Shown piece by piece: positions 4,371 to 60,003 of a stretch of 64,000 bases of DNA. The notes below the pieces were generated by a model that ran no database searches, was not told the origin of the DNA, and saw nothing but the letters and a program-made list of their open reading frames with translations. The stretch's first letter is position 1; every line of letters starts with the position of its first letter. Made by a program: the position numbers and the translations under genes. Location of the stretch: positions 1-64,000 of the IMG/VR virus record IMGVR_UViG_3300018432_000013; one strand, 5' to 3'. The DNA is from a virus.

Positions 4371-4380
4371 GGGCACTAAC
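4371..4380 (+). promoter_or_regulatory. RGGCACYAAC motif (putative promoter)
   Basis: GGGCACTAAC 32 nt before ATG 4413, SD between. Confidence 0.6.
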
Positions 4381-4412
4381 TGCTGGGGAACCTCCACCTG
4401 GAAGAGGCCCCC

Positions 4413-5150
4413 ATGCCGAACGAGAAGCTCACCGAAATCGTCGTCCTGCTCGACCGCTCGGGCTCCATGTCACGCATTCAGATCGAGATGATGCTCGGCT
4501 GGAAGACCTTCATGGACGAGCAGCTGCGCCACCCTGACCCCGCGGTCGTTTCGCTCTACCAGTTCGATGATCAGTTCGAAGCGGTCTACGAGGAGCGCGC
4601 GATCCGCGACGCCGTCCTTGTGCTTCGTCCTCGCGGTGACACCGCACTGCTCGACGCCATGGGTCGTGCCATCACGCTCGTCGGCGAGCGCCTTGCGAAA
4701 AAGCGAGAAGAGCATCGTCCCGGCAAGGTGGTCTTTCTCGTCATCACCGACGGCATGGAGAACCGCTCGCATGAGTTCTCACGCCTGAAGATCGCCGAGA
4801 TGGTCAAGCACCAGCAGGAGAAGTACGGCTGGCAGTTCGCCTTCCTCGGCTCGAACCTCGACTCGTTTGCCGAGGCGCAAAGCCTTGGCATCGAGCGCGG
4901 CGCGGTGGCGAACTTTCAGAGCAACGCAGCCGGTGTGCAGGCCATGTACGGCGCCTCCAGCCGAGGCCTGAGCGCCTACCGCTCGGCAACTGGGCGAGAC
5001 GCCAAGCTCAACATCGGCGAGCAGCCGCAATCGCAGGTGCAGCCTGTCGCAGCGCCCATCATCGACCCCAACAGCGACCTCGACCTCGAGCCAGATCCCG
5101 AGCCCGAGCTTGCGCCTGGCACACCGAGCGCTCCGAACGAGGACCTGTGA
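4413..5150 (+). CDS. von Willebrand factor A domain protein
   Basis: MIDAS LLDRSGSM, TALLDA, VITDGMEN. Confidence 0.9.
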   Translation: MPNEKLTEIVVLLDRSGSMSRIQIEMMLGWKTFMDEQLRHPDPAVVSLYQFDDQFEAVYEERAIRDAVLVLRPRGDTALLDAMGRAITLVGERLAKKREEHRPGKVVFLVITDGMENRSHEFSRLKIAEMVKHQQEKYGWQFAFLGSNLDSFAEAQSLGIERGAVANFQSNAAGVQAMYGASSRGLSAYRSATGRDAKLNIGEQPQSQVQPVAAPIIDPNSDLDLEPDPEPELAPGTPSAPNEDL

Positions 5151-5566
5151 CCAAGCCGAACTTCGAGCTCCTCTACCTTCAGTCGGAGCTGCGCGTGGGG
5201 CGCACCACGCGCGCGCTTCAGAAGATCGTCGAGCTCGTGCACAAGCTCGACGCACCGGACGCCTCGGAGATCCGGCTTGTTGCGCAAGAGGCGCTCGCTG
5301 GACCTGATCCGTCGGTGCGCACCGACTTTGACGACCTAACTTCACGCGCGCTCTTTGACGCCGTCATGCAGACGGAGCCGGAGTCGCCTGACGTGATGAC
5401 CGCTCGCTACGGATCGCTGACGATCGTCGCTTCGCCCATCGTGCCGCGCGACCTCGTGCTCGTCTCCGATGGCGAGGACGTTCGCAGCTTCAAACTTGTG
5501 CCGATCGAGTCCGAAGGCACCGAACCAGAGAAGTCCCGGGCTCACTGGTGCGAGGGCTGCGACTAG
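5147..5566 (+). CDS. hypothetical protein
   Basis: GTGA coupling to vWA gene. Confidence 0.65.
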   Translation: MTKPNFELLYLQSELRVGRTTRALQKIVELVHKLDAPDASEIRLVAQEALAGPDPSVRTDFDDLTSRALFDAVMQTEPESPDVMTARYGSLTIVASPIVPRDLVLVSDGEDVRSFKLVPIESEGTEPEKSRAHWCEGCD

Positions 5567-5699
5567 GCAGGGTGACGGTCTCGGCCCGCGAAGAACAGGC
5601 GCAGGTCACCGTATCGAGACCTTGGGAGCGACGAATAGAGCTTCCTGAAGAGGCTGCTCTCGTAAACCGAGACCGTCGGCCGCGATCTTCGCACAAGCA

Positions 5700-5709
5700 G
5701 GGCACTAAC
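5700..5709 (+). promoter_or_regulatory. RGGCACYAAC motif
   Basis: 8 nt before GTG 5718. Confidence 0.6.
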
Positions 5710-5717
5710 GCTTCTTT

Positions 5718-5975
5718 GTGAGCAGCGTGACGCGCCGGATCCGTCGTGGACTGTGCCCGGTCTACCTCGCTCGGACGCGCGCGCTGCGCCGCCAACGAGA
5801 GGAGCTCGTGCGCCGTGCCCAAGAGCTTGCCGCAGCGATTGAAGCCGCCGTCGCCGTCGTCTACGACGGCACCACGATTCCCGGCGTACGCAGCGGAGGG
5901 GCTTTCCTGTCCGCACTATGCACCGTTGCCCGACTCGCGGCGCTGCCGACACTACTGGGACGGAAGCTCCGCTGA
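5718..5975 (+). CDS. hypothetical protein
   Basis: Motif-anchored start; GC-rich third positions. Confidence 0.5.
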   Translation: MSSVTRRIRRGLCPVYLARTRALRRQREELVRRAQELAAAIEAAVAVVYDGTTIPGVRSGGAFLSALCTVARLAALPTLLGRKLR

Positions 5976-6150
5976 CTTCCCGTCGGATGAGCACTACCCG
6001 GACCTCGAAGGCGCGTGCGATCGCGACGACGAGTTCATGTGCATCTTCTGGCTGGCCAAGTACCCGAGCGCCTACGAAGACCCGCGAGGCAAGGTCCACC
6101 GCGTCGATACGGACGGTGTCGTACACCTCACACCTGCACCGAAAAGGTGA
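5815..6150 (+). CDS. Cys-rich hypothetical protein (CPHY..RCRHY..GAC..FMC), overlapping previous ORF
   Basis: GAGGAG 11 nt before GTG 5815; four spaced Cys suggest metal binding; start uncertain. Confidence 0.55.
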   Translation: MPKSLPQRLKPPSPSSTTAPRFPAYAAEGLSCPHYAPLPDSRRCRHYWDGSSADFPSDEHYPDLEGACDRDDEFMCIFWLAKYPSAYEDPRGKVHRVDTDGVVHLTPAPKR

Positions 6151-6189
6151 TCGGGTGCAAGCCAGCGCACGTCCAAAATCGCTGATCGC

Positions 6190-6199
6190 AGGCACTAAC
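6190..6199 (+). promoter_or_regulatory. RGGCACYAAC motif
   Basis: AGGCACTAAC 7 nt before ATG 6207. Confidence 0.6.
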
Positions 6200-6206
6200 C
6201 ATCCAC

Positions 6207-6629
6207 ATGGAAACAGCCCGCTCAGACCGTGCCCATGACCCTGTGGAAAACCCTGTGCACTACAAGCGCCTCCGACACGAGCCCATCGTGGTCATGGAAG
6301 CTCTCGGACTCGGGCCTCAGTTTCACCTCGCGAGCGCGCTAAAATACGTGGCTCGCGCAGGCCACAAGGGCGCCGCGCTGGAGGATCTGAGCAAGGCTCT
6401 TTGGTGCGTCGGTCGAGCTGTGGAGTACTACTCTCCCGCACCGCTCCAGATGACCAAAGCAGAGGTCGACGCAGTACTCCAAGACTGGGGGCTCAGCGCT
6501 AACCTGTCCGCGGCAGTCCAGCACTTGATCGGCGGAACCTGGGTGGCTGCGCATCTTTTGCTCAGCATGGAGATCGAACAGCTCAAGCACGCCGCAAGTA
6601 GTCTTGCAGACGGGCATGCTGCGCGGTGA
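6207..6629 (+). CDS. DUF3310 domain protein
   Basis: DPVENPVHY...ALKYVARAGHKG..EDLSKALW. Confidence 0.85.
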   Translation: METARSDRAHDPVENPVHYKRLRHEPIVVMEALGLGPQFHLASALKYVARAGHKGAALEDLSKALWCVGRAVEYYSPAPLQMTKAEVDAVLQDWGLSANLSAAVQHLIGGTWVAAHLLLSMEIEQLKHAASSLADGHAAR

Positions 6630-8230
6630 AGGCTCGCAAGATCATCCTTGAGAACTTCATGACGCACGAGCAGACCGAGGTCTCGCTCCCGGAGACCGGC
6701 GTCATGCTCATCACAGGCCCCAATGGCGCCGGCAAGAGCGCCCTCGTGGTCGAGAGCGTGGCGCAGGCTTACTTCGGTCGAACGCTGCGCGGCAAGCCGC
6801 CCTGGAGCGGCGACCCGGCCTCGGTTCGGGTCGTGACGGACCTCTTGGACATCACCCGACGCAAGCAGGGCCAAAAGCTCATCTGGCACCTGCATGGCGA
6901 ACTGCCGACGACTTACGACACGCCCACCAAGGCGCAGGCTGCCCTGCAAGGCTTTGTGGGCACGTTCGACGTCTGGCGCCGCACGAGCGTGTTCTCGAGC
7001 TCGGACGCGGCGCACTTCTCCCTCGCCCGCGACCGCGATCGCAAGCTGCTCTTGGAGACCATTCTCGGTCTCGACCGCTTTGACCCGGCGCTCCAGCGTT
7101 GCCGCGTGGACTTGCGCGACGCCACGAACGCCCTGCGCACCTTGGAAGCCAAGGCGATGGTGCTGCGCGAGCGCATCAAGGGGACACTCGACCGTTTGCG
7201 CGATCTCGAGGACGCAGAGGAGAGCGAGGAAGCCGTCGTCGAGCCGCTGATCTCAGCGGAAAAGCTCGCATCCGGACGCGCACGTCTGCTTGTCATTCGA
7301 GAACTCTGCGAGAAGCAAGAGATTCGGCGCGTTGCCATGGAACGCGAAAACCACAAATGCTCGGCCGATGCGCAGCAGAAGGTGCGAGCTCGCAACCTGC
7401 TCGATCACGACAACTGCCCGACGTGCGCCCAACCCATTCCCACATCCCTACGTGCGAGCCTGCATGCCGAGGTCGAGGCTGCGGTCGAGAAGAGCCAGCA
7501 AAACGAAGAGTCGTTCAAGGCGGCACGTGTCAAGCAACGTGCGGATGTCGGCGCGCTGCAGGAAGAGGCAGACAAGATCCGCGCGCTACTGACCCACGCT
7601 GCGGCCATCGAGCGCGACCACGTGCGGCTGCGGCAAAACCAAGAGCAGCGTGTTGAAAAGCGGTCCCTATTCTTGGAGGAGCTGCGGGCAGCCAAGGAGA
7701 GCCTACGCAAGACGGAAGCCGACATGCTTCTCATGCGTCGAGACGTGGCGGAGCTTGAAGTGGTCGAGCGCGTGCTTGGACTGCGCGGCGTGCGCGCGCA
7801 CATGCTCGGCTCCGCCATGGCGGCGATCACCGCGCTCGCCAACGGTTGGCTCGCACGTCTGTTTCCCGGGGTGACCCTGTCACTCAAGGAAACCAACGAC
7901 CAGATCGAGCTCAACCTCCACGGGCTCAAGCACGAGTACGGCTACCACGCCGCCTCAAGCGGACAGCGGCGGCGCGTCGACATCGCCATCCTGCTCGCAC
8001 TGAGTGACATGGAGGCGGCCTCGCGCGGCGTCGAGCGCGAGATGCTCATCTTCGACGAGGTGGGCGACACGCTTGATGTGGAGCAAGGCCTGCCTGCCTT
8101 CATCGAGGTCGTGCAGGAGATTGCGGAAGAGCGCTGCGTCGTCATCGTGTCGCACAACCAGGCGCTGATGGAAGGATTGCAACCGACCGCACGTCTTTAC
8201 GTCGCCGATGGCCAGGTGTTCGAGCACTAA
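6626..8230 (+). CDS. SbcC/Rad50/T4 gp46-like SMC ATPase
   Basis: Walker A GPNGAGKS, coiled coil with CPTC hook, SSGQRRR signature, LIFDE Walker B, H-loop SH. Confidence 0.92.
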   Translation: MKARKIILENFMTHEQTEVSLPETGVMLITGPNGAGKSALVVESVAQAYFGRTLRGKPPWSGDPASVRVVTDLLDITRRKQGQKLIWHLHGELPTTYDTPTKAQAALQGFVGTFDVWRRTSVFSSSDAAHFSLARDRDRKLLLETILGLDRFDPALQRCRVDLRDATNALRTLEAKAMVLRERIKGTLDRLRDLEDAEESEEAVVEPLISAEKLASGRARLLVIRELCEKQEIRRVAMERENHKCSADAQQKVRARNLLDHDNCPTCAQPIPTSLRASLHAEVEAAVEKSQQNEESFKAARVKQRADVGALQEEADKIRALLTHAAAIERDHVRLRQNQEQRVEKRSLFLEELRAAKESLRKTEADMLLMRRDVAELEVVERVLGLRGVRAHMLGSAMAAITALANGWLARLFPGVTLSLKETNDQIELNLHGLKHEYGYHAASSGQRRRVDIAILLALSDMEAASRGVEREMLIFDEVGDTLDVEQGLPAFIEVVQEIAEERCVVIVSHNQALMEGLQPTARLYVADGQVFEH

Positions 8231-8248
8231 CTCTCCTTGGGAGGGGAG

Positions 8249-8497
8249 ATGGCCAACAAACCACTGACACCAGGTCAGCGACACGCGCTCATGCTCGTCG
8301 CAGAAGTTCTTCGTGAGCGCAACATCGTGAGCGTGTGCCTTTGTGACGACGAAGGGCTCTACACCGCGAAAGGGTCGTTCGTACTGACGACCTATGACGT
8401 AGCCGAGGAAGCGACGAATCCCGATGCCGCGCCGGCTGAGCACCCGCCCAACGTGACGCTGCTCGCGGCGGTCGAAAAGCTCGGGGACGGGAAGTGA
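8249..8497 (+). CDS. hypothetical protein
   Basis: GGAGGGGAG SD; motif variant GAGCACTAAC at 8222-8231. Confidence 0.7.
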   Translation: MANKPLTPGQRHALMLVAEVLRERNIVSVCLCDDEGLYTAKGSFVLTTYDVAEEATNPDAAPAEHPPNVTLLAAVEKLGDGK

Positions 8498-9068: not shown

Positions 9069-9085
9069 TGAGAGTGCGTGATCTC

Positions 9086-9095
9086 GGGCACCAAC
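9086..9095 (+). promoter_or_regulatory. RGGCACYAAC motif
   Basis: GGGCACCAAC 6 nt before ATG 9102. Confidence 0.55.
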
Positions 9096-9101
9096 ATGGC
9101 C

Positions 9102-9566: not shown

Positions 9567-9568
9567 CC

Positions 9569-10093: not shown

Positions 10094-10117
10094 CGGACGC
10101 GCTGAGAAGGAGACGCT

Positions 10118-12724: not shown

Positions 12725-12726
12725 GC

Positions 12727-15092: not shown

Positions 15093-15096
15093 GCGC

Positions 15097-22556: not shown

Positions 22557-23288
22557 TCAGCAGCGTGGCTGCGCGTTGAGTGGTGGGATGGGCAGTCCGC
22601 GCCGCACGCCGCGCAGCAGGTCGATAAGCTTCTGCACCTGTGTGCGCGCGCCGAACACGTCATGACCGAGCGGCCCAAGGGGCTGAAGTGGCGCTACCCC
22701 AAGCAGCGCCAAGAACAGGTTCAAAAGCTCGAAGATGGGTGAGAGCGGCGCCATCGCCTCATCCACGGCACACATCCGCATCGCATTGATTTTGCGCGCG
22801 CAGTCGAGCACCGCAGCGAGGGGATCGCTCTCGCTGATGATCTGCTGCGCGAGCCGGTCGATATCTTGCTCCTTGAGCGCGATCTGGGCGAGCTCAACCA
22901 TAAAGCCCTCGAGCACGCGAATCACGACGTCGAGCACGTGCGCCACCATCAGCGGCCCGGAAATCTGCGGGACGAGCTGCGCAAGCGACGCAAACGTCTT
23001 GGCAGCGTTCGAGATCTCCTTCGCGATCTTCACGGGGTTGAGCGTCGCCACCGCATCGAGGATCTTCACGATGGCCAGCACCGCCGCCAGGATGTCGAAG
23101 ATGGGCTTGGTCGGCGCGAGCACGAGCTGCACCTGGGCGAGCAGGCTGCGCGCGACCTCGGCTTCGGTCGCGTAGAGCTGCGACATCATCGCGCCGATTT
23201 TGGCCCCGCCCGGGAAGGTGAGCTCGAGACCGCGCGCGCCGAGCAGCGGGATGGGGCACGTCACGCCGGTTGCGACGTTGAGAGGCAT
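22557..23288 (-). CDS. hydrophobic helical hypothetical protein in baseplate cluster
   Basis: TGATG-coupled to spike gene. Confidence 0.7.
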   Translation of the reverse strand: MPLNVATGVTCPIPLLGARGLELTFPGGAKIGAMMSQLYATEAEVARSLLAQVQLVLAPTKPIFDILAAVLAIVKILDAVATLNPVKIAKEISNAAKTFASLAQLVPQISGPLMVAHVLDVVIRVLEGFMVELAQIALKEQDIDRLAQQIISESDPLAAVLDCARKINAMRMCAVDEAMAPLSPIFELLNLFLALLGVAPLQPLGPLGHDVFGARTQVQKLIDLLRGVRRGLPIPPLNAQPRC

Positions 23289-23836
23289 CAGAGCGCTCCA
23301 AAGCCAGCAGCGACGCCGTTGACGAACACCTGCAGGCCCTCGATGTACACGAAGCCGTCCGCCTTGAGGTTGAGCGTGCTCGTCGCCTGCACCGTGATCG
23401 AACGCGTCACGCCATTCATCTGCACCGAGTTTCCGCTCAGCTTGTCGTGAAGGGTAAGTGAGCGGCTCTCTGGACGGTCGTCGATCAGCACGACGTAACT
23501 CTCTGTCTCGATGGCCTGGGCGTTGGGGTCGCCTTCGGTGCCCGTAAGCTGCTCTCCGTGCCCGAGATTGCCGCCGAGGTAGTAGGGCTGGTCGACGTCC
23601 CCCATCCGGAAGAAGACAGCCACCTCGGCGCCCACAGGCGGCACGAACACGCTCCCGCGCTTCTTCGACCCGCCACCGAAACCGAGCGGGAGCGCCCAGT
23701 TCGTTCCCTGCTCGATGATGCCGGGGATCTGAACGCGTACGCGCCCGAGCCCCTCCGGGTCGTCGCGCTCGATGACCGGGCCCGTGAACAACCCATGAAG
23801 CGGCATGTCCGGCCTACCGAGATCGTGATGGAACAT
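23288..23836 (-). CDS. baseplate spike protein V (gp5 OB-fold)
   Basis: DDPEGLGRVRV, PPVGAEVAVFF.GD..QPYYLG. Confidence 0.9.
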   Translation of the reverse strand: MFHHDLGRPDMPLHGLFTGPVIERDDPEGLGRVRVQIPGIIEQGTNWALPLGFGGGSKKRGSVFVPPVGAEVAVFFRMGDVDQPYYLGGNLGHGEQLTGTEGDPNAQAIETESYVVLIDDRPESRSLTLHDKLSGNSVQMNGVTRSITVQATSTLNLKADGFVYIEGLQVFVNGVAAGFGAL

Positions 23837-29044: not shown

Positions 29045-29350
29045 CTATCGCTTGCGGTACGCGCTGCGCAGTGCGGCCGCTTCTTTCTGCCGTGTCTCGT
29101 GCAGGGTCTCGACCATCTTCAACGCTTCATCGAAGTCCGCTTCGAGCACATCACGTCTCGACCAGCCAAGGCCGCTACCGCCGTGCTGCACGTACCCGAG
29201 CGCAAAGCAAAGCTCCGAGACGAGATCCGCCGGCATCCGTGGAAACAGCCGGCACAACGACACTTCGTCTATGGTGGGACAATGCGGGACTAGGAACCTG
29301 TCCTCGTCGCCTTCCTCGACGGCGACCAGTACCCCCGCTGGTCCAAAGGG
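29045..29350 (-). CDS. tail assembly chaperone frameshift extension (T-like)
   Basis: -1 frame relative to upstream chaperone; entered at CCCTTTG. Confidence 0.65.
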   Translation of the reverse strand, partial: PFGPAGVLVAVEEGDEDRFLVPHCPTIDEVSLCRLFPRMPADLVSELCFALGYVQHGGSGLGWSRRDVLEADFDEALKMVETLHETRQKEAAALRSAYRKR

Positions 29351-30039: not shown

Positions 30040-30049
30040 GTTAGTGCCC
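30040..30049 (-). promoter_or_regulatory. RGGCACYAAC motif
   Basis: 21 nt before GTG 30018, just after a terminator. Confidence 0.6.
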
Positions 30050-33230: not shown

Positions 33231-33239
33231 AGCGTATCA
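33231..33239 (-). promoter_or_regulatory. extended -10 TGATACGCT, leaderless
   Basis: 7 nt before ATG 33223; identical copy at 34274-34282. Confidence 0.55.
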
Positions 33240-34267: not shown

Positions 34268-34279
34268 ATCCCGAGCGTA

Positions 34280-36074: not shown

Positions 36075-36081
36075 GTCAGGT

Positions 36082-36113
36082 AGGCTATCAGATGCCTACG
36101 TCCGGGCACTAAC
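36082..36113. promoter_or_regulatory. back-to-back promoters: TGATAGCCT (-) and GGGCACTAAC (+)
   Basis: 7 nt and 9 nt from the two divergent ATGs in a 48-nt gap. Confidence 0.6.
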
Positions 36114-36122
36114 GGTAGAAGC

Positions 36123-37034: not shown

Positions 37035-37231
37035 CGGGCTTCTTTGTCGGCCGCGTGTTCTTCCACATCTACACCGAAAAGGAAAACGTCTGCTGCAACG
37101 AGTGCGGCAAGTGGCTCGACGCGTCCATTGCCGCAGAGCACGCGCGCAAACGCCACCGCGGCCGCGCCGATGGTGTGCTCGCTGGGCAGCTCGGCCTGCC
37201 GTTCACGAACACGCCCGACGTACCGCGCTAG
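37031..37231 (+). CDS. small C2H2-type zinc finger protein
   Basis: CNECGKWLDASIAAEHARKRH; ATGA coupling. Confidence 0.6.
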   Translation: MTGFFVGRVFFHIYTEKENVCCNECGKWLDASIAAEHARKRHRGRADGVLAGQLGLPFTNTPDVPR

Positions 37232-37824
37232 CTCACTGCCTGCGGCGCAAAACGTTTCGCGATACGCGCAAAGTCGCGAAGTCTGCGCAGCTCGTCAATC
37301 GCAGCCTCGATGTCGACCGAGGCACGATGCGCGGCGCCAGCATCAGGCTTCTTCAAGCCGAAGTCAGCGAGGTTGAAGATGCGCCGGCCGGAGCCCACTT
37401 CAAGAATCTGGTACGAGCACGCCCAGTCAAACAGCGGAAGCGCACGCTCGATCATGCGCTTGTCGAACTGGACGGAGTAGCCGATCAGCATGATCTCGCC
37501 CGGCCTCATGCCCATCCTGCGCAGAAACTCAAGCAGGCGCATCTCCACGAGCTGCGGCGTCGTAGAGCGCTGCGCCCGTTCATACTCCCTGCGCACTTCC
37601 GCAAGCAGCCCGCTCTTCTCGTGCCACTCGCGCACTTTGGGATCGAGCTGCGCTTCAAGGTGGCCGTAGGTCGCTGCCTCCGTCACGAGCGACCCGAACC
37701 GGCCAAGCGTGTTGAGGCGCTCATCGAGTGCCACGGCTGCAATCTCGAGGACAAAGTCATGCTCGAAGTCGACGCCCGTAGTCTCGAGGTCAACGCCGAG
37801 CAGGTAGTTCGTCTTGGCAATCAT
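37228..37824 (-). CDS. orn: oligoribonuclease-like DEDDh exonuclease
   Basis: VDLETTG..VLEIA, H..SGLL, GYSVQFDKRMI, HRASVDI. Confidence 0.8.
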   Translation of the reverse strand: MIAKTNYLLGVDLETTGVDFEHDFVLEIAAVALDERLNTLGRFGSLVTEAATYGHLEAQLDPKVREWHEKSGLLAEVRREYERAQRSTTPQLVEMRLLEFLRRMGMRPGEIMLIGYSVQFDKRMIERALPLFDWACSYQILEVGSGRRIFNLADFGLKKPDAGAAHRASVDIEAAIDELRRLRDFARIAKRFAPQAVS

Positions 37825-38201: not shown

Positions 38202-38621
38202 TCAAGGACGAACTGGAACGCCATACACAACGTTGGTGCCCGAAACTCCACCCGCGATGATGAGCGCAAGCTCGCGTGGTGCAACTTTGTGTGCGGTTGC
38301 CGCGCGCATGATGGCCACGCGCGGCTCGACACCGCTCAGGATGAGCGTTCGTGTCAGACGAGCGGCCTTTTCCATGGGCGACTCTTCTGAAGTCCCAACC
38401 CCAATCACGACGGTCACATCGCCCTCTGGGGCGCCTGGATCGATCAGCACCACTCGCTTGCCGTCCGCCATAAAGCCTCCCCGATAGGCGCGCTCCTCGT
38501 CGAGTCGCTTGCCGCGCTTGCCGCGCGATCGTATGCCGCGCGCTGCTTTGCGCGTGAGGAGCGTCTTGCCCTCCTTGAGCGCCTCGACGCGCTCGCGCAG
38601 CGTGTTGTACTTCTTCGGCAT
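38202..38621 (-). CDS. basic hypothetical protein
   Basis: TGATG-coupled to adaptor gene. Confidence 0.6.
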   Translation of the reverse strand: MPKKYNTLRERVEALKEGKTLLTRKAARGIRSRGKRGKRLDEERAYRGGFMADGKRVVLIDPGAPEGDVTVVIGVGTSEESPMEKAARLTRTLILSGVEPRVAIMRAATAHKVAPRELALIIAGGVSGTNVVYGVPVRP

Positions 38622-40540: not shown

Positions 40541-41218
40541 CTACGGCCCCATTTTCGTGCCCTTTCGTGGCACCTTGCGGGCCGCCTTCATCTCAGCTTG
40601 GTTGGTGCCCCGAACCCGCTCGACCGCGAACTGCGGCTCCACCGTATGCATGGGAAGTGCACGCAAGCGCGGGTCTGGAACATCGCCGCCCTCTCGGCGC
40701 AGCGTCTCGTTCTCGGCCTTGAGCTGCAGGTTGTTCTCTCTTTCGGCTGCAAGCTGTCCTGACAGTCGTGCGTTCTCGAGCGCTGCGCGGTCGTTGGAGA
40801 TCCTCAGCTTTTGCAGCTGCTCGACAAGCGCGCGCAACTCCTCGACCTCGGCGTGCTCCTGCGCGCCTGCAATCCTTGCCTGCGTGAGATCTCCACGCAG
40901 CCGCATCAGTGCCGCCTGCGCCTCGCTGAGCTCCTGACGCAGCCGCAGCGACTCGACCTCCTTGCTCAGAAGCTGCAGGTCGAGCGCTGGGGCTGCGTGC
41001 GTCCCGTGCAGCGCGGACGTTGGTGACCCAACTGCGGCGACGTCCGCTGCGCCGCGGGCTGTGGCCGCTGCGGACTTCTCTGCGGCCCTCTCCGCCCTCT
41101 TCATACGCCCCGTCGGTCCGATCATCGGCGCAATCCACGTATCGAAGACGAGCTTCACCAGCGCTGCCGCAGCAGCGGCAAGGATCGTGATCAACCACGT
41201 GGGTGGCGTGAGATTCAT
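40541..41218 (-). CDS. membrane-anchored coiled-coil protein
   Basis: N-terminal TM; long heptad region. Confidence 0.7.
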   Translation of the reverse strand: MNLTPPTWLITILAAAAAALVKLVFDTWIAPMIGPTGRMKRAERAAEKSAAATARGAADVAAVGSPTSALHGTHAAPALDLQLLSKEVESLRLRQELSEAQAALMRLRGDLTQARIAGAQEHAEVEELRALVEQLQKLRISNDRAALENARLSGQLAAERENNLQLKAENETLRREGGDVPDPRLRALPMHTVEPQFAVERVRGTNQAEMKAARKVPRKGTKMGP

Positions 41219-41745: not shown

Positions 41746-44679
41746 TTATGCGGCCCACGCACGTGCGTGCTGCAAACCAAGAGCAGGCGCGCCGACCTTG
41801 GCAAAGGTCGCGGCATTGCCCGTGCGATCGGTGATGGTGCCAGGCACGTCATTGCCGGCAGCACGCGCGTCGAGGTCGAAGTCGAACAGCATTCCAGGCA
41901 GCCCCGGAACCGGCATGATCCGTTCGCTCGCCATGACGGCATCCCACTGTGCCTGGTACTGCGCGAGCGACGCCACGCCGAGCGCGTACGTGAAGCCGTA
42001 GATCTCCCAACCCTCCGCAGCCAGTAGCGCGGTGTGATTGACGCGGCCCAGCATCGGGGCGCCCGTCGTCGCAGCAGCAAAGCCGCCCGTGAGAGTGACT
42101 GCTGTTCCGACGTCGAGGCGCTTGGCACGCAGACGCGCAGCCGAGCCGTCATAGGTTCCCTGCAGAAGATGGATCTTGCCGACGTCGCTTGCGCTCATCA
42201 CAGCGGACGATGAGTTGACTGCAGTCGAGCCATTCCCGACGCCTAACACTACCGTGCTGTTCAGGCCGACCGACGCGAACGACCAGCCATGCGTAGTGTT
42301 GGCGCGCTGTCCGAGCAGACCACGCGTCGCAGACGTGACGGACTGCGAGACCAGGCGCGCGAGGATCGACACCGTGAAGCCTGCAGGGTCACCAGGCAGC
42401 GCGTTGACTGCTGCGGCGAAGTAGCTCGCAAGCGTCCACGTGTTGCCGCCGTACAAGATCGGGCTCGTCTCGTAGCTCCACACGCGCTCGACGCGCTGCG
42501 CGACAGTCAGGCCCGTCCCTACGCGTGCGAGATGGTCGGTGCCGATGCGATCGAGCACCGTTGCAGGCACGCCGTTGTCGGGGCCGCCGTTGGCGATAGT
42601 GTCTGCAGTCAGGTCGTGAACGCGGTCGGTCTTGCCGGCGATCGCCAGCATCCGATAACCGGCTGTGACAATCGCGGCTGTGTGCTGCTGAATGTCCGCC
42701 AGCGAGAGCGAGGCGTTGCCGAAACCAAAGCCGCGCGCATCCCAGTCCTGCGCAACGATAGTGAGATTGTTGCTTGCACCGAAGCTCAAGGCGACCGTGG
42801 CGGGCGTGAAAGTTACGGCAACGGGCGCTCCCGTGCTCACCCCGTTTAGATAGAACTCAAGGAACCCCGCCTCATAGCGCATGTGCAGAATCAGGGGCTG
42901 TCCAACGTTGCCGGCCGTCAGATTCGGGATCGCAGCCGTCACGCTGTTGTTGACGGTCGCCTGCAGCTGTATGCCGGCCGTGGCGAACACGCGGAACTTG
43001 TTAGCCGCTTCGAAGAGGCAGCGATACAGCGGCGAGGATGCGATGGACCACGGCGTGCCAATGAATGAGCACCACCATGTCGCACCGATGCTGATCGAGC
43101 CGAGTAGATAGTGCGCAGCGCTAAACCCCTGCACCCCGTACGTCTTGCGCCCGTCAACACTCGGATCGATCACGCGCACCGTTGGCGTGCCGACCTTGCT
43201 CATGACGTCTGCAGCAGCGCCCGTGATGTTGTCGGCAAGTGCTGTTGGCGCGACTGGCCCCGTTGCAACAACAACCGCTACTTCAAGCGTCCCTGTGCGC
43301 GTAAGATGATCGGTGCCGATGCGATCAAGCACGGTGGAAGGCATAGCCAAGCCGTTTGACTCGATGTCTGCCGACAGATCATAAATGTGCTGCGTTTTAT
43401 TCGGGATGGGCTGGATGCGCCCACTCGCGAGGATCGCCAACGCGTTGTCCGCGATTTCTACAGCCGTAGGGACAAAGTGTCCGCCAGCCGCACCGAATGC
43501 AGACGCAGCCGACGCTGGGTTATCAAGCTGCGACCGAACACCGATAAACGTGCTCGTGGCCATTGGTGTGAAGCCGGTAATGTTGGTGCCAGTTCCAACT
43601 TCGACACCATTGAAGTAGAGCCGTACTTTGCTCCCGTCGTGCACGCCGTGGATCACGCAGGGAATACCGAAATCACCGGACGACCAAGTACGAGCGGGCG
43701 CATTGGTCCCGACTGACGCGCCGTCCACAGCCGAAAAGAGAACCACGCCTCCTACGGAGAGTATCTGCCACCCGGCACCGAAGTAACCCCTACAGAACAG
43801 CGCCCCTGTGGTGGTGGCGTAGACGATTCCATACCAGACCACGTGGAAGCCAGCCACGATGCCGGCTATGCCGCCAAGGTTGGCAGTCGCGAGGTAGTTC
43901 GCCGTTGAAAAGCCACGCGCCCCGTACGTCTTACGCCCCGCCGGATTGTGGACACCAGCAAGCGCACGCTTTGCGGACCAGTGATGCGTCACCGTCGCGC
44001 CGGCGATCGTGTCGGGAAGATCACCGAGAGTGCGGGTGGCCATCGCGAGCGCGGCGATGTCTGCGTCGCTTGGCGTGCCGCGAAACGTCAAAGTACCAAG
44101 CAGGCTCCCGCCTAAGAACGGGCCGGCGCCGCTCGCGCCAGCCCCCGAAGTCATCACGGACGAGAACGGTGTATAGCCAACGCAGGCGTTCGTGGAGAAC
44201 AGATGCGGCCCGAAATAGAACTTGAGCAGATTGCCCGCGCCGGTATGCAAGGCGGTGAACAGCAGCACCTGGCCGACTTGACTCGGCGCGACGGTGTACT
44301 GTGTGGACAGGGCCGCTAGAGCGGCGTTGATAAAGTAACACTCCAGCCTGTTGATCGTGTCGAGCTGCGCCAAGTAGCCCCCGCCACCGACGCCGGACGC
44401 GCCCCAACGGCCAAGCAGGCGCCGGAAGCTCGCCACGAGACTCTCTAAGCGCGTCGCTATGACGTAGCCAAAGCCCGTCGCCACCCCCGCCTCGCCACCC
44501 AGATTCTGCGTCGTGTAGTAGTTGGCGGCGCTGAAGTCGGACAGCGCGTACATCCATGCACTACGCAGTGCATTGGCCTTGCGCTGCGCAAGCGTGAGAG
44601 AACCGCCACCCCCGCGCGAGCCCGGATACCGACGCTCGCTACCCGGAAACCGTCGGTGCAATGCACGCTGCGAACTCAC
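41746..44679 (-). CDS. large repeat protein with about four LamG/ConA-like domains (head fibre or decoration candidate)
   Basis: Repeats RKTYG..GFS.A.YL, TVLDRIGTDHL; DGSKVRLYFNGVEVG. Confidence 0.75.
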   Translation of the reverse strand: MSSQRALHRRFPGSERRYPGSRGGGGSLTLAQRKANALRSAWMYALSDFSAANYYTTQNLGGEAGVATGFGYVIATRLESLVASFRRLLGRWGASGVGGGGYLAQLDTINRLECYFINAALAALSTQYTVAPSQVGQVLLFTALHTGAGNLLKFYFGPHLFSTNACVGYTPFSSVMTSGAGASGAGPFLGGSLLGTLTFRGTPSDADIAALAMATRTLGDLPDTIAGATVTHHWSAKRALAGVHNPAGRKTYGARGFSTANYLATANLGGIAGIVAGFHVVWYGIVYATTTGALFCRGYFGAGWQILSVGGVVLFSAVDGASVGTNAPARTWSSGDFGIPCVIHGVHDGSKVRLYFNGVEVGTGTNITGFTPMATSTFIGVRSQLDNPASAASAFGAAGGHFVPTAVEIADNALAILASGRIQPIPNKTQHIYDLSADIESNGLAMPSTVLDRIGTDHLTRTGTLEVAVVVATGPVAPTALADNITGAAADVMSKVGTPTVRVIDPSVDGRKTYGVQGFSAAHYLLGSISIGATWWCSFIGTPWSIASSPLYRCLFEAANKFRVFATAGIQLQATVNNSVTAAIPNLTAGNVGQPLILHMRYEAGFLEFYLNGVSTGAPVAVTFTPATVALSFGASNNLTIVAQDWDARGFGFGNASLSLADIQQHTAAIVTAGYRMLAIAGKTDRVHDLTADTIANGGPDNGVPATVLDRIGTDHLARVGTGLTVAQRVERVWSYETSPILYGGNTWTLASYFAAAVNALPGDPAGFTVSILARLVSQSVTSATRGLLGQRANTTHGWSFASVGLNSTVVLGVGNGSTAVNSSSAVMSASDVGKIHLLQGTYDGSAARLRAKRLDVGTAVTLTGGFAAATTGAPMLGRVNHTALLAAEGWEIYGFTYALGVASLAQYQAQWDAVMASERIMPVPGLPGMLFDFDLDARAAGNDVPGTITDRTGNAATFAKVGAPALGLQHARAWAA

Positions 44680-45559: not shown

Positions 45560-46513
45560 TCAGGCGACGCGCACGTTCGTCGCCTTCACGACCGCGGGCT
45601 CGTAGGCGTACTTGGTGTCCATCCGCAGGGTGGCCACGATCTTGAGGATGCCCGCCGAGATATCCTTGTCGGTCTCGATGCGGATCTGACGCCAGATGCC
45701 GACGTTGATGTTCTTCGGGTCGAGCAGGAGCACGACCGAGGAGTTCGCGCCGCCGCCGAGGTTCTCAGGGAACATCGGCACCGACTGAATCGGGATGCCC
45801 GAGTAGACGACCGGCGCGTTGCCGGTGAGCTGCTCGGCTGAGATGGGCGCCATGTTCAGGCCGACCAAGCTGTCGCGGTAGTCGATCTCCGCATCGATGC
45901 TCGTGAGGTACACGAGGTCGTTTCTGCGACGCAGGTACTCGGTCGGCATGGCCTTGACCATGTCGCGGAAGATGTTCTTCGTGAGGGTCACCGTGCCGGC
46001 GTTGACGACGTTCGAGCTTGCGCCCTTCACGATGCCGTCGAACTGCGCGAGGAAGGTGTCGGTCGACGTGACGTCGCCGTTGATGACCACTTCGTCGATG
46101 TCGCGCGAGATTGCCTCGGCCATCAGCGTCATGATCGTGTTCTTGAGCGCGCCGCGCTCGATGGAGTCCTCGAGCACTTCGTTGTCGAGGTCGACCTCTG
46201 CCTTGAACAGCTTGGCGTCGAGCTCGAGTTTGCCGAGGTTCGGCTTGGCACGGTCAGCCGCGGGAAGCGCGGTGGCTTCCTGGCCCGCGCGCAAGACACG
46301 GCCGGCGAAACGAATCGTCTCGACGATGTGCTTGGGGGCCTTCATGGGGATGACCGTGGCGATCTTCAGGATCACCGCCTCCTTGATCAGGAGTCGGATG
46401 AACTTCTGCGCCTGTGCCGGCTGCAGCAGACCTCCGTCTGTCATCAGATCCGCCAGGGCGAGGTCGGCCTTGGCGAGCAGCGTCCGGTTGGACATCCCTT
46501 CGAACATGCTCAT
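45560..46513 (-). CDS. major capsid protein (HK97 fold)
   Basis: GGLLQPAQAQKFI, EVLEDSIE, VINGD; strong codon bias. Confidence 0.92.
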   Translation of the reverse strand: MSMFEGMSNRTLLAKADLALADLMTDGGLLQPAQAQKFIRLLIKEAVILKIATVIPMKAPKHIVETIRFAGRVLRAGQEATALPAADRAKPNLGKLELDAKLFKAEVDLDNEVLEDSIERGALKNTIMTLMAEAISRDIDEVVINGDVTSTDTFLAQFDGIVKGASSNVVNAGTVTLTKNIFRDMVKAMPTEYLRRRNDLVYLTSIDAEIDYRDSLVGLNMAPISAEQLTGNAPVVYSGIPIQSVPMFPENLGGGANSSVVLLLDPKNINVGIWRQIRIETDKDISAGILKIVATLRMDTKYAYEPAVVKATNVRVA

Positions 46514-46526
46514 CTGTGTCTTCCTT

Positions 46527-47564: not shown

Positions 47565-47617
47565 GATCCGCTCCGGAGGGTATCAACGATTTTCCGTGCC
47601 GCGCAACACCTTAGCCT

Positions 47618-53988: not shown

Positions 53989-53996
53989 AGCGAACC

Positions 53997-54284: not shown

Positions 54285-54288
54285 GGGC

Positions 54289-54525: not shown

Positions 54526-54532
54526 GGTCCGC

Positions 54533-55150: not shown

Positions 55151-55167
55151 AGGCCCCTCAACTTGGT

Positions 55168-55177
55168 GTTGGTGCCC
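55168..55177 (-). promoter_or_regulatory. RGGCACYAAC motif
   Basis: 17 nt before ATG 55150, GAGGGG SD between. Confidence 0.6.
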
Positions 55178-55186
55178 GATCGCGGC

Positions 55187-56767: not shown

Positions 56768-56823
56768 GGGGCCGAGAGTATCACGAACGACTCCGCTGGC
56801 CGCAACGGGCTAGGTGAGCCGGC

Positions 56824-57144
56824 TCAGTGCACCGAATCGTCGTCTGGAGGCTGGGCCGGGGCCAGCTCAGGCGCGACCAGTCCGAGCGCAACCATGTTCT
56901 CGTGCATGCCTCGGACCATCTCCTCGTTCTCTGCCACCCGCAGGACCTCCTCGCAGATCTCCTCAAACGAATAGTCGGTGTGGTGCACCAACAGGCCTCC
57001 GAGCAGCCCGTGCACGTGCAGCAGCACGTTGGGCGTGATGCCCTTCTGCGGATCGGCCATCAACCGAAGGATCTCCTCAAACGCGATGGCCGCCCGCGCA
57101 GCCGCTTCCACGTGATCTTCGCCGCAGTCTTTACACGCTGCCAT
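56824..57144 (-). CDS. hypothetical protein (N-terminal CxxC..H)
   Basis: GGAGG SD; MAACKDCGEDH. Confidence 0.65.
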   Translation of the reverse strand: MAACKDCGEDHVEAAARAAIAFEEILRLMADPQKGITPNVLLHVHGLLGGLLVHHTDYSFEEICEEVLRVAENEEMVRGMHENMVALGLVAPELAPAQPPDDDSVH

Positions 57145-57841
57145 GGACCTGCGCCTCCTCCGGGTAACAAACAATGAGATGAGAGCAGGGCCTCTTTTCG
57201 CCGTACATCAAACACGCACTCTTGGTCGGTGGTAGGTCAAGCACGGGCCTTCGTTCTTCCTTCACGAGCGCCATGTAATCGATGAGCTGCGAGCGCGCGC
57301 GTAGCACGCGTGTCGCATCGTCCATGGAGATCTCCGTCTCCACCGGCCGCAGATCGATGGGCTCTGTGCGCTTGTAATAAAGCCACTGCGCCGTGCAGGT
57401 CGTCGTCCCGTAGTGCCTCATCGCGAAGAACGCGTAGATGCAGGCCTGCAGGTTCGTGCGCAGGCGTGGTGCAGTCAGCGCGAATCGATAGTGATCCACC
57501 GTCTTGTGATCGACCACGATGGGCCCGCAGGGAGCAATCCACATCAAGTCGGGCTTCAACCGAAAGCCATGCGCTCCGTACGTGACCACCTCGTCCTGCT
57601 CGATACAGGGGGCGTCCGCAAGCGTCGGGAAGTAGTCGCGCGCGAGCGCAGCAAGCCGCCCCATGGGCTTGGTCAAATCAAACTCGATGCCGTAGCGCAC
57701 GTAGTTCTCGACGTGCGCATGAAGATCGTCGCCATCCTCTTGCGGCTTGCCGCGCGTCTCGTGCCGCCCGCCGTACGCGCTCCACGCCCACTTCCGAACG
57801 CACTCCTCGGCTGTCTTGACCTGGCTGTAGGAGGTAATCAC
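57131..57841 (-). CDS. PD-(D/E)XK Cas4/RecB-like nuclease with probable Fe-S cluster
   Basis: SYSQV..CVRKW, GDDLH, PDL..VVDHKT, QACIY, three C-terminal Cys. Confidence 0.85.
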   Translation of the reverse strand: MITSYSQVKTAEECVRKWAWSAYGGRHETRGKPQEDGDDLHAHVENYVRYGIEFDLTKPMGRLAALARDYFPTLADAPCIEQDEVVTYGAHGFRLKPDLMWIAPCGPIVVDHKTVDHYRFALTAPRLRTNLQACIYAFFAMRHYGTTTCTAQWLYYKRTEPIDLRPVETEISMDDATRVLRARSQLIDYMALVKEERRPVLDLPPTKSACLMYGEKRPCSHLIVCYPEEAQVHGSV

Positions 57842-58137
57842 GCGTGTTGCCTCAGCTGTGCTCGGTGGAGACCCGTATCCAACGCAGCCCCGTCTTGCGG
57901 CAGGACGGCGTATGACACGAGGCACTGCGTTATCTGCCGTGGCACTTGCAGTCCAGCCCGCACAACGCGAACCCGTGATTTCCGCAGCCCGCATTCGCGT
58001 CGGTGAGCAACTATCCACAGATACTGATTGGGAAACGGCCATGCTGACAAGCATTCCGCATCTAACCAACGCAACTTAGGTGCGCGAGAGCACACCCATC
58101 CAGCAGGTCGGTACCCTCGATCGATCGCCACGTTCAC
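57838..58137 (-). CDS. hypothetical protein
   Basis: Motif AGGCACCAAC (58145-58154) 7 nt upstream; GTGA coupling to nuclease. Confidence 0.5.
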   Translation of the reverse strand: MNVAIDRGYRPAGWVCSRAPKLRWLDAECLSAWPFPNQYLWIVAHRRECGLRKSRVRVVRAGLQVPRQITQCLVSYAVLPQDGAALDTGLHRAQLRQHA

Positions 58138-58183
58138 AATCTAGGTTGGTGCCTCGTTACACGTCTGCTTGACGGCTGTCAGC

Positions 58184-58504
58184 TCACAAACCTTGACGTA
58201 CGTGGGCCAAAAGCTCGTTCGAGCGCACGATCCCGAGCTGCGCCGCGACCGCGACGAACTCCCGCGCGGTGAGGCGCGGACGCGCGCGCAGCGGCGGGTT
58301 TTGGGATGCGAAACCCGACGAAACGGGAGCTGCAACAGCCTTCGACGCCTTTCGAACGGCTGATGCCGCCTCAGAACGAACGACGTACACGTAATTCTGT
58401 GACAACAAAACCCCGCGCGCTAAAGCACGGTCAACGATCTCCCGCGCGGAGAGTTTCTTCGGGCAGCTGAGAATGAACTGCCTCTTCGAGAGGGTACTTT
58501 TCAT
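58184..58504 (-). CDS. small basic putative DNA-binding protein
   Basis: SKRQFILS..LSAREIVDRA..LSQNYVYVVRS. Confidence 0.65.
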   Translation of the reverse strand: MKSTLSKRQFILSCPKKLSAREIVDRALARGVLLSQNYVYVVRSEAASAVRKASKAVAAPVSSGFASQNPPLRARPRLTAREFVAVAAQLGIVRSNELLAHVRQGL

Positions 58505-58519
58505 AGGGCGGCACTCTAC

Positions 58520-58729
58520 CTAGAGCCGCGACTCGCCCCCACCGTTTTGTGCACGTTGCGCGCAGAGCGCTTCGATTCGTACCGCTGCGTCTTCCTTAGC
58601 GCGCGCCGCCTCAATCTGCGCCGCACTCTGAAACGCGACGAACATCAGGTGCTGCGCCTCCTGACGCAAATCCGCAGCGAGCTTCGTAAACGGATCTCCA
58701 CTCTCCAGCCCGATCAACATGGCTCTCAA
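58520..58729 (-). CDS. hypothetical protein
   Basis: Coupled to upstream ORF. Confidence 0.55.
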   Translation of the reverse strand: MRAMLIGLESGDPFTKLAADLRQEAQHLMFVAFQSAAQIEAARAKEDAAVRIEALCAQRAQNGGGESRL

Positions 58730-58998
58730 CCTCCCTCTTCGTCAGGCTCATCAGGCAACTCGCGCAGAAACACGAGGAGCTTGGCCGCGTTCACCGGCCC
58801 AAGCCCCACCTCGAACCGAAAGAGATACTGATCGGTGTCTTCCTCGACCAGGGCGTGGCCCTCAGGTGTCGTGACAACGTCACCGAGCTGCAGGTCAAAT
58901 CGAACGACCTCGAACGCCAGACGCTCTGCGTCACCGGCGACAACGAGCTCGTCGAGCTGCTTTCTCATGGCCTGATGCTGATCGCTGTAGAAGGGCAT
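58726..58998 (-). CDS. acidic hypothetical protein
   Basis: GGGCACCAAC (59007-59016) 8 nt before ATG. Confidence 0.7.
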   Translation of the reverse strand: MPFYSDQHQAMRKQLDELVVAGDAERLAFEVVRFDLQLGDVVTTPEGHALVEEDTDQYLFRFEVGLGPVNAAKLLVFLRELPDEPDEEGG

Positions 58999-59035
58999 TA
59001 CTGCAGGTTGGTGCCCGAGATCACGGCCGACTGAG

Positions 59036-59085
59036 AAAAAAAAGAGAGGGCGATGCGGAGCGCCGACAGCCGCATCACCCTCTCT
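59036..59085 (-). terminator. strong intrinsic terminator
   Basis: AGAGAGGGTGATGCGG...CCGCATCGCCCTCTCT then T-run. Confidence 0.85.
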
Positions 59086-59103
59086 CCCTCAGGGAAATGA
59101 GGC
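59036..59103 (-). ncRNA. candidate ~68-nt small RNA
   Basis: TGGTAGAGT -10 at 59110-59118; CCTCA-TTTCCC-TGAGG hairpin; terminator. Confidence 0.4.
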
Positions 59104-59155
59104 AGGCAAACTCTACCACCTACCACCTACCAAGCACCCCGCACCTGAGCCCCCA

Positions 59156-59737
59156 TCAAACCTTCGGCTCGTACGGCTCCCAGCGATCCGTATCGAGCAG
59201 CGGTTCGATTTCGATGTGACTCACGGCCGGAAAGCCTAGCGTCTCCGGCGAGGCCAAGGATCGCACCTCTCCAAGCGGACCGTAGGTTCCGTCTTCAAGC
59301 CGCGTGAGCAGAACATGGTCGTTGGGATAGGCCCATTCGAGTCTCCGCACCGCCACCACGTCACGCGCCATCAACTCCCGAAGCGTCATGCCTGCCTCCT
59401 CTCGATCGAGCTCTGCGATCACCTCTGCACCCGGCATCACGAAGCGCGGCGCAGCAACGAGCCCAGACTGCGCTCGATACGTCGCAAGCGTGCGAAGGCG
59501 CGCAAGCTTCAAACGCGCACGTTCAAGCTGCTGACGCGCCGCCGCAAGCTCTTCGAGCAGCTCAAGAACATCATCGGCCAGGTCGAGGCGAAAGAAGTCT
59601 TCAAGGTCGGTAACCAGGCGCTCCAGATCGACCTCGCTGCGGGTGGCAGAGACGGTGATCTCCGGATCGATACGGCTATACGCGTAGCGCGCCGCCTCCG
59701 CGCGCTGCCGCAAAGCAACCAGTAGGCTCTGCTTCAT
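59156..59737 (-). CDS. hypothetical protein
   Basis: TGATG coupling. Confidence 0.7.
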   Translation of the reverse strand: MKQSLLVALRQRAEAARYAYSRIDPEITVSATRSEVDLERLVTDLEDFFRLDLADDVLELLEELAAARQQLERARLKLARLRTLATYRAQSGLVAAPRFVMPGAEVIAELDREEAGMTLRELMARDVVAVRRLEWAYPNDHVLLTRLEDGTYGPLGEVRSLASPETLGFPAVSHIEIEPLLDTDRWEPYEPKV

Positions 59738-59946
59738 CAGCCCTCCTGCCTGGCCTGCCGCATCCTGCGCAGCTCCTGCACGGCCTCATCCGCGGCATCC
59801 TGGGCGCCGTACGCCGCGAGCGACGTCGCTGCCTCCGACTCACCGCCCCGCTGCTCACGATACTTGAGCTTGAGCGCCACGAACGCAGTCGCGTACGCGC
59901 ATTCCCAGACTCGTTCCTCGTTGTCGCACCGCAACTCGGGCAGCAT
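59737..59946 (-). CDS. hypothetical protein
   Basis: GGGCACTAAC (59954-59963) 7 nt before ATG 59946. Confidence 0.65.
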   Translation of the reverse strand: MLPELRCDNEERVWECAYATAFVALKLKYREQRGGESEAATSLAAYGAQDAADEAVQELRRMRQARQEG

Positions 59947-60003
59947 GCGAAAGGTTAGTGCCCGATCTCGTTCCGAGTCGGCTCTTGCTTTCCAAAGCAC
60001 CGT

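Follow-up and report, generated by a model that had tools for sequence, protein, structure and literature searches.

The window analyzed in this work, i.e., the first 64 kb of the 112,926-bp IMG/VR virus record IMGVR_UViG_3300018432_000013 (hereafter G000), carries a recurrent ten-nucleotide element, RGGCACYAAC, for which an original prediction had proposed the role of a new class of promoter driving leaderless phage mRNAs. The G+C content of the G000 sequence is 63%, and the ends of the record are identical over 123 bp, pointing to an assembly that is circular or circularly permuted. Matches to PHROG and Pfam families were found both in the virion module (tape measure, tail sheath, portal, large terminase, and T4-type baseplate hub) and among the DNA-metabolism genes (helicases, a PolA-type DNA polymerase with an N-terminal uracil-DNA-glycosylase (UDG)-like domain, an SbcC-like protein, endonuclease VII, and a DNA methyltransferase), and by this gene content G000 is an uncultured contractile-tailed phage of a myovirus lineage. 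No tRNA genes were found in the genome. The virion module also encodes a 977-aa protein (41746-44679, minus strand) having neither a PHROG match, nor a tblastn match in GenBank phages, nor a counterpart in the related genome described below, which is likely a variable tail fibre or receptor-binding protein.

The megablast and tblastn searches of GenBank phages revealed no close relative of G000. Relatives of its portal protein (about 50% identity) are located mostly in Myxococcota-labelled genomes, which is a weak pointer to a Myxococcota-type host. The sole close relative found, G001 (116,020 bp, 64% G+C), was retrieved from IMG/VR via the profile of a sigma-like protein; 56 G000 proteins are matched in it with 25-65% identity and the gene order is conserved. 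Viral contigs baited with the G000 DNA polymerase contained no relative, and of the 56 viral loci collected with the portal alignment none but G001 was enriched in GCACTAA, the core of the element in that genome. The genomes G002-G004 (107-110 kb, fetched whole) have only the virion module in common with G000 and lack the element; a sigma-family match was found among them in G003 only, where it is weak (79412-79936). G003 (IMGVR_UViG_3300018422_000001, 110 kb) has a repeated upstream unit of its own, GCGCTTTTCAAG...TGAAATACCGCTAGC, in about 15-20 copies.

Occurrence, placement, and spacing of the box

All 12 exact copies of RGGCACYAAC found earlier by eye in the window, as well as the variant at 8222 (GAGCACTAAC), were recovered at the same positions and on the same strands (Table 1). 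Dinucleotide shuffles of the window gave on average 0.25 copies (maximum 2), which agrees with the former estimate of less than one chance copy. The whole 112.9-kb genome contains 18 exact copies, compared with a mean of 0.40 (maximum 3) in second-order Markov simulations and with 1 and 0 copies of the reversed control on the two strands. Together with the one-mismatch intergenic copies at 8222 and 83460 (coordinates above 64,000 refer to the genome), this makes the 20 G000 sites considered further.

According to our own gene calls, based on codon usage, 15 of the 18 exact copies fall between genes and share the orientation of the gene that follows (the binomial probability of at least 15 intergenic copies is 2.5e-9). 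The other three (38232, 40601, and 88720) are located on the sense strand, 9-60 nt before the stop codon of a gene, and no copy is antisense. This placement speaks for a promoter. Conservation is limited to about 12 nt (CC GG GCACYAA C); there is no conserved -35 block, and columns -15 to -45 carry no real information. It was also considered whether the TAA within CACTAAC could serve as a stop codon of the upstream gene, which was rejected, as only short frames end at this TAA and the sequence is CACCAAC in half of the copies. A literature search with the motif strings returned unrelated primers only. Scanning of IMG/VR with the 16-mer GATCTCGGGCACYAAC gave 35 single-copy hits, which were dismissed as chance matches, since none of them was enriched for the 10-mer.

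Two classes of spacing to the start codon were distinguished. In class 1, the start codon is located 6-9 nt past the 10-mer (10 nt at the one-mismatch copy 83460) and no Shine-Dalgarno sequence (SD) is present. In class 2, comprising nine of the 20 sites, the gene starts 17-96 nt downstream, behind its own GGAGG-type SD. A promoter explains both classes together. The seven gaps of 6-9 nt without an SD reported in the original prediction were all measured correctly; four of the starts involved (5718, 58137, 9102, and 36123) are uncertain. Its four gaps of 17-32 nt with an SD (4413, 8249, 30018, and 55150) were found as described, with a GGAGG-type SD at each. The start at 6207 is fixed by the DUF3310 family matches, which begin at residues 4-13.

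Table 1. Box sites, other promoter-like elements, and associated genes of G000; the gap is the number of nucleotides between the 10-mer and the start codon.
Position (strand)	Element	Start codon (gap, nt)	SD	Spacing class (support)	Gene and remarks
4371..4380 (+)	GGGCACTAAC	ATG 4413 (32)	GGAAGAGG-type	2	VWA-domain protein
5700..5709 (+)	GGGCACTAAC	GTG 5718 (8)	none	1 (doubtful)	5718-6150 weakly coding, product uncertain
6190..6199 (+)	AGGCACTAAC	ATG 6207 (7)	none	1 (well supported)	DUF3310 gene, then SbcC-like gene 6626-8230
8222..8231 (+)	GAGCACTAAC, one mismatch	ATG 8249 (17)	GGGAGGGG	2	overlaps the stop codon of the SbcC-like gene
9086..9095 (+)	GGGCACCAAC	ATG (0); ATG 9102 (6)	none	1 (9102 probable)	154-156-aa gene of unknown function; GTG 8 nt upstream is a further possible start
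30040..30049 (-)	GGGCACTAAC	GTG 30018 (21)	GGGAGG	2	T4-type baseplate hub gene 29290-30018
36104..36113 (+)	GGGCACTAAC	ATG 36123 (9)	none	1 (probable)	internal GTG 36162 also a possible start
38232..38241 (-)	GGGCACCAAC	GTG 38171 (60)	GGAGG-type	2	in the last 30 nt of gene 38202-38621
40601..40610 (-)	GGGCACCAAC	ATG 40504 (96)	GGAGG-type	2	in the 3' end of gene 40541-41218
55168..55177 (-)	GGGCACCAAC	ATG 55150 (17)	GAGGGG	2	just past the large terminase gene; metzincin-like peptidase gene
58145..58154 (-)	AGGCACCAAC	GTG 58137 (7)	none	1 (doubtful)	open reading frame weakly coding
59007..59016 (-)	GGGCACCAAC	ATG 58998 (8)	none	1 (well supported)	90-aa gene
59954..59963 (-)	GGGCACTAAC	ATG 59946 (7)	none	1 (well supported)	69-aa gene, G+C at third codon positions 0.86
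	box	80462	none	1 (well supported)	
83460	GGGTACTAAC, one mismatch	(10)	none	1	helicase gene
	box	87064	none	1 (well supported)	open reading frame with endonuclease VII domain
	box	92670	none	1 (doubtful)	open reading frame weakly coding
	box	92906	GGAGG-type	2	
	box	98146	GGAGG-type	2	
36075-36122	leftward TGATAGCCT (36082-36090) back to back with rightward GGGCACTAAC				48-bp divergent spacer
33231-33239, 34274-34282, 36082-36090, 47577-47585, 56775-56783 (-)	TGATACnnT				
16393, 29034 (-)	TGATACnnT, weaker				
66422 (-), 67576-71891 (+)	TCAAGT-N14-GCCGATAA, eight				sigma28-type promoters, near consensus, in front of a small-gene array
81360-82001					sigma-like gene
89942-92578					DNA polymerase A with N-terminal UDG-like and 3'-5' exonuclease domains

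For the box at 58145, a better candidate gene than the weakly coding frame is 57131-58069, with the start 75-90 nt downstream and with an orthologue in G001 that is also preceded by a box. The operon following the box at 38232 includes a gene for a protein similar to the exonuclease subunit of DNA polymerase (37228-37824). The orthologue of the gene starting at 40504 (45951-46520 in G001) has GCACTAA and an SD directly upstream. In the divergent spacer 36075-36122, both boxes are located 7-9 nt from their own start codons, and the equivalent G001 spacer has a GCACTAA box. Regarding the earlier claim that two copies directly follow terminators, it holds for 59007, where a strong hairpin with a T8 run ends about 17 nt upstream and only about 45 nt between it and the ATG are left for a promoter; at 30040 (a T-run and hairpin about 28 nt upstream) the terminator is only a plausible one.

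Behind the box at 5700 there are about 480 nt (5710-6190) without a convincing open reading frame; neither of the candidates 5718-5975 and 5746-6150 matches a family, both are weakly coding by their statistics, and the region may encode a small protein or a non-coding RNA. Moreover, at about five of the 20 G000 sites a GATC occurs 0-2 nt upstream of the box (gatcgc, gatctc, gcgatc, gagatc; 6184-6189, 9080-9085, 55178-55183, 59017-59022, and 59964-59969), and ggatcgt is found beside the box at two G001 sites. As G000 encodes a DNA methyltransferase (98146-98997), methylation-sensitive control of the GATC-flanked promoters is conceivable.

The shifted box of the related phage and other promoter-like elements

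In G001 there is no exact RGGCACYAAC and one-mismatch hits occur at the level of the control. The genome has a shifted version of the box, GGTGCACTAA(T/G), at 15 sites: G[GT]GCACTAA occurs in 15 copies, 13 of them intergenic and co-oriented, compared with 0.27 expected, and the logo of the sites reads aA(T/C)(C/G)GT-GCACTAA-(T/G)A. The same signal emerged when k-mers of upstream regions were compared blindly with those of the whole genomes: GCACTAA and GTGCACTA ranked at the top in G001 and GCACTAAC near the top in G000. The G001 boxes precede orthologues of the G000 genes 36123, 39767, 57131, 88789, and 92906, and one of them divergently adjoins the sigma-like gene, while the spacers flanking the boxes cannot be aligned with those of G000. 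The distance from GCACTAA to ATG or GTG is exactly 6 nt at six sites, one of them at the start of the G000 23288-23836 orthologue; roughly half of the G001 sites are far from the start, which has its own SD. The presence of the shifted box at orthologous places in a related genome supports the reading of this element as a promoter.

Another of the six G001 boxes with the 6-nt distance stands directly in front of the start of a protein (47676 onward) with an N-terminal SGGLDS motif, which we take to be QueC-like; such a reading hints at 7-deazaguanine DNA modification in this group of phages.

Two further promoter-like classes were found in G000 (Table 1). The first is TGNTANNNT, mostly TGATACnnT, with 20 of its 35 G000 occurrences being intergenic. 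It ends 6-7 nt before virion-gene starts in G000 (33231, 34274, 36082, 47577, and 56775, the last one for the large terminase), and several virion genes of G001 have TGATACnnT with the same spacing. By its sequence, TGATACnnT is a textbook extended -10 element, and its spacing is that of leaderless mRNAs. The two elements share their place relative to starts, which gives the GCACYAA box the position of a -10 element of leaderless mRNAs. The leaderless arrangement thus appears to be a general habit of both phages, with GCACYAA as a second, non-canonical element of the -10 region; the view that this geometry is a speciality of RGGCACYAAC is not upheld, as the virion genes of G000 exhibit it as well. 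The assignment of the box to a regulon distinct from most virion genes is consistent with the use of TGATACnnT boxes by the latter.

The second class comprises the eight sigma28-type promoters at 66.4-71.9 kb. Bacterial sigma28 (FliA/WhiG) promoters have the form TAAA-N15-GCCGATAA. No such promoters were found in G001, the early region of which contains sequences resembling sigma70-type promoters. GCCGATAA and GGCACTAA agree at five of eight positions, including the TAA end; however, at no box site is there a TAAA/TCAAG -35 partner 14-15 nt upstream, and the true sigma28-type promoters of G000 are located elsewhere. The extended -10 consensus (TGnTAnnnT) does not fit either, since GGGCACYAAC has neither TG nor TAnnnT, and TGCACTAAT of G001 fits only TGn and the last four positions of the hexamer. 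As for sigma54 (GG-N10-GC, TGGCAC-N5-TTGC), GGCAC resembles the -24 box, but nothing is conserved 10-15 nt downstream. The earlier exclusion of a sigma70 match and of the sigma54 -12 element was thus correct.

A divergent sigma-like gene outside the window

The original prediction recognized no sigma factor gene within the window. Such a gene lies beyond it, at 81360-82001, with an ATG behind a TAGGAG SD and a product of 213 aa, and it is the only sigma-like gene of G000. Alone, the protein scores 14.8 bits against Pfam Sigma70_r2, which is below the cut-off of 24. An exhaustive HMMER search found 14 relatives, and nine of the 11 aligned members of the family match Sigma70_r2 (best E 6.5e-10), while three match Sigma70_r4 or r4_2. 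Among the significant PDB matches listed for the family profile there are only sigma factors, i.e., FliA (5e-7), AlgU (9e-7), RpoH, RpoS, and the extracytoplasmic function (ECF) sigma SigE, and region 4 of AlgU, SigE, and FliA is matched as well (E from 9e-7 to 4e-4). The alignment of the family contains the motifs G.NGA..ATY...A and P(V/T)H(V)AKNK, presumably corresponding to regions 2.1-2.2 and 2.4, respectively.

The structure predicted by AlphaFold2 from the alignment has a predicted local distance difference test (pLDDT) score of 81, and the single-sequence fold (pLDDT 58) was uninformative. Among the top 50 Foldseek matches of the model in PDB nearly all are sigma-factor chains or sigma-containing RNA polymerase complexes, with a probability of up to 1.0. 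As the two sigma domains can move relative to one another, TM-scores are low and E-values reach only about 2e-3. Furthermore, the language-model neighbours of the protein in the ESM Atlas are viral Sigma70_r2 clusters. Taken at the level of sequence profiles and the model, the product of 81360-82001 is a divergent two-domain protein of the sigma70 family, with a predicted sigma2 domain connected to a predicted sigma4 domain through a disordered linker. Its G001 orthologue is 27% identical; a closer homologue (P0003, 41% identity) is encoded on a 117,050-bp JGI contig, which was not returned by the scans of viral and metagenome contigs.

The proposed search of the rest of the genome for a sigma factor or an RNA polymerase thus provided the former. 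A T7-type RNA polymerase was rejected, as the sole PF00940 hit (10 bits) is the 878-aa PolA-type DNA polymerase, and no other RNA polymerase-like protein was found among the large proteins of G000. G001 keeps both the sigma-like gene and the GCACTAA box and has no sigma28-type promoters. By elimination and by this co-occurrence in two genomes, the phage sigma is probably the protein that reads the GCACYAA box and is its best candidate reader. Recognition of an extended -10 element requires a contact made by sigma region 3.0, which the G000 sigma lacks; the TGATACnnT class is therefore most plausibly read by the primary sigma of the host.

Proposed mode of action of the box and its known counterparts

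The motif is real and has a function. Its excess, placement, orientation, and spacing, its conservation in a relative, and the existence of a sigma gene are observed, and from them we infer the promoter activity, the start site, and the identity of the sigma reading the box. The explanation that we favour, and consider somewhat better than an even guess, is that RGGCACYAAC is a phage-private, single-box promoter, which is read by the host core RNA polymerase with the phage sigma and often gives rise to leaderless messages. The conserved block of about 12 bp would constitute the -10 region, unaccompanied by a conserved -35; the host core enzyme with the two-domain sigma would melt DNA at the box and transcription would start about 7 nt downstream. 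Where the start codon follows 6-10 nt after the box, the mRNA would be leaderless or have a leader of 1-3 nt and an SD would not be needed, and with a gene start 17-96 nt downstream, the message would carry a short leader with a normal SD. The genes served would be mainly those of DNA metabolism and accessory functions, with some genes of the virion module, and their regulon would stand apart from the virion genes with TGATACnnT boxes and from the small-gene array with sigma28-type promoters. The geometry postulated in the original prediction, i.e., a single -10-type element with no conserved -35 and with a start about 7 nt downstream, is consistent with the tests of G000 sequences and with the G001 box.

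Several observations weigh against this explanation. Some of the seemingly leaderless starts are uncertain (5718, 58137, and 92670, and possibly 36123 and 9102), and the distance between the box and the start varies in G000 from 6 to 9 nt (10 at 83460), so that some messages would have a leader of 1-3 nt. The sigma is linked to the box by their co-occurrence in two genomes only, and the comparative base is narrow, with the box missing from the distant virion-module relatives G002-G004. G000 has three unusual promoter-like classes and one phage sigma, which is closest to FliA by profile and might read the eight sigma28-type promoters. Finally, a sigma4 domain is present, yet there is no conserved -35.

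Alternatively, the box may be a promoter read by an alternative sigma of the host, or by its primary sigma redirected by a phage factor, with the FliA-like phage sigma serving the sigma28-type sites, near consensus as they are. In PDB, the profile of the sigma family matches FliA best over its full length, and in the Myxococcota, to which the portal relatives point, the Myxococcus and Corallococcus genomes tested have no match at the FliA/WhiG cut-off. On the other hand, a FliA/WhiG-type sigma above that cut-off was found in three of the five Myxococcota genomes tested, so a host could read sigma28-type promoters by itself; ECF sigmas score about as well as FliA, whose match is weak, and in G001 the sigma orthologue and the GCACTAA box occur with no sigma28-type promoter. 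We regard such an arrangement as unlikely.

Explanations in which the box does not position RNA polymerase are less probable still. An asymmetric, intergenic site of 10-12 bp oriented with transcription could be bound by a phage regulator (an activator or repressor) overlapping promoters with their -10 and -35 elements elsewhere, as the stoperators of L5-type phages are also asymmetric, intergenic, and oriented in this way. However, the box is not accompanied by any further conserved promoter element, and no recognizable -10 or -35 is conserved upstream; at many sites the start codon follows within 6-10 nt, which leaves no room for a -10 downstream, and the box at 59007 directly follows a terminator-like structure, so that a role as a regulator site seems improbable. 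The box might also act in RNA, as a ribosome-recruiting signal other than an SD or as an endoribonuclease cleavage site trimming polycistronic transcripts to near-leaderless mRNAs, and we rate this at slightly lower still. A distance of 6-10 nt to the start without an SD does resemble Shine-Dalgarno spacing, and start-associated sequences occur in cluster K mycobacteriophages; but the box is not complementary to the anti-SD, a fixed short distance to every start was not found in G000, where the nine class 2 sites are 17-96 nt away, as are about half of the G001 sites distant from starts with an SD of their own, and the identically spaced TGATACnnT boxes are canonical -10 elements acting at the level of DNA.

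Amongst described systems, the nearest to the phage-sigma promoter favoured here is that of coliphage phiEco32, the gp36 protein of which is a very divergent two-domain phage sigma of about 214 aa with a sigma2-like N-terminal and a sigma4-like C-terminal domain (PMC12276001). Its middle and late promoters, read by the host core enzyme with gp36, have AATGTA centred at -11.5 and no conserved -35, and form a class separate from the early promoters read by host sigma (PMC12276001). G000 similarly has a predicted two-domain phage sigma and one conserved block with no conserved -35; the position of the block relative to +1 would be that suggested by start codons and by TGATACnnT as a yardstick. 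The two systems differ in that hhalign of the G000 sigma-family alignment against gp36 (NC_010324 34166-34810) gave a probability of 0.1%, the G000 consensus is longer and unlike AATGTA, no gp79-like co-factor was identified in G000, and the host lineages differ; moreover, the paper on phiEco32 does not describe leaderless starts (PMC12276001). By analogy, the G000 system would work like that of phiEco32, with a sigma that is not a member of the gp36 family.

In Thermus phages Lalka27a (the TAGGGT class) and YS40, a class-specific -10 box ends about 6 nt before the 5' end of a leaderless transcript, whose first nucleotide is the start codon's A or G, and there are many such promoters per genome (bioRxiv 10.64898/2026.04.20.719267). 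Their boxes fit TANNNT, and host RNA polymerase with a specificity changed by a phage factor was suggested to read them (bioRxiv 10.64898/2026.04.20.719267). GCACYAA does not fit TANNNT and G000 encodes its own sigma; the closer counterpart of the Thermus boxes is the TGATACnnT class. The T4 late promoters (TATAAATA), with which RGGCACYAAC had been compared in the original prediction, are read by gp55, a protein limited to a region-2-like part, together with gp33 and the gp45 sliding clamp. They share with the box the single -10-region element, the lack of a -35, and a phage-encoded sigma-like reader. However, the analogy is loose, as the consensus GGGCACYAAC is unrelated to TATAAATA, the G000 sigma has sigma4 besides sigma2, and the genes served are not mainly virion genes; gp36 of phiEco32 is the better analogue. 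It should be stressed that leaderless messages of phages are established, as are single-box promoters under a phage sigma, so the strategy is already known, no new principle is involved, and the term "new promoter class" was an overstatement.

A bolder reading may be put forward only tentatively, i.e., that an undescribed viral subfamily of two-domain sigmas (with no sigma3 and scoring below the Pfam thresholds) reads 12-bp single-box promoters that launch leaderless mRNAs, and that sigma and box have drifted together in the sister phages, in which GGGCACYAAC (G000) and GGTGCACTAAK (G001) are paired with sigmas of 27% identity. If true, this would provide two naturally orthogonal sigma/promoter pairs and a three-tier cascade in a Myxococcota-like host, with host-type early promoters, middle promoters read by the phage sigma, and extended -10 late promoters.

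If the favoured explanation is right, it would give a transcription map for an uncultured 113-kb myovirus lineage with three promoter classes, one of them phage-private and probably tied to the phage's own sigma. A box of about 12 bp with a sigma of 213 aa would make a small and possibly orthogonal expression module, with G001 supplying a second pair of shifted specificity. It would also add a case, beyond the Thermus phages and the Actinobacteria, of a phage that seems to make wide use of leaderless mRNAs.

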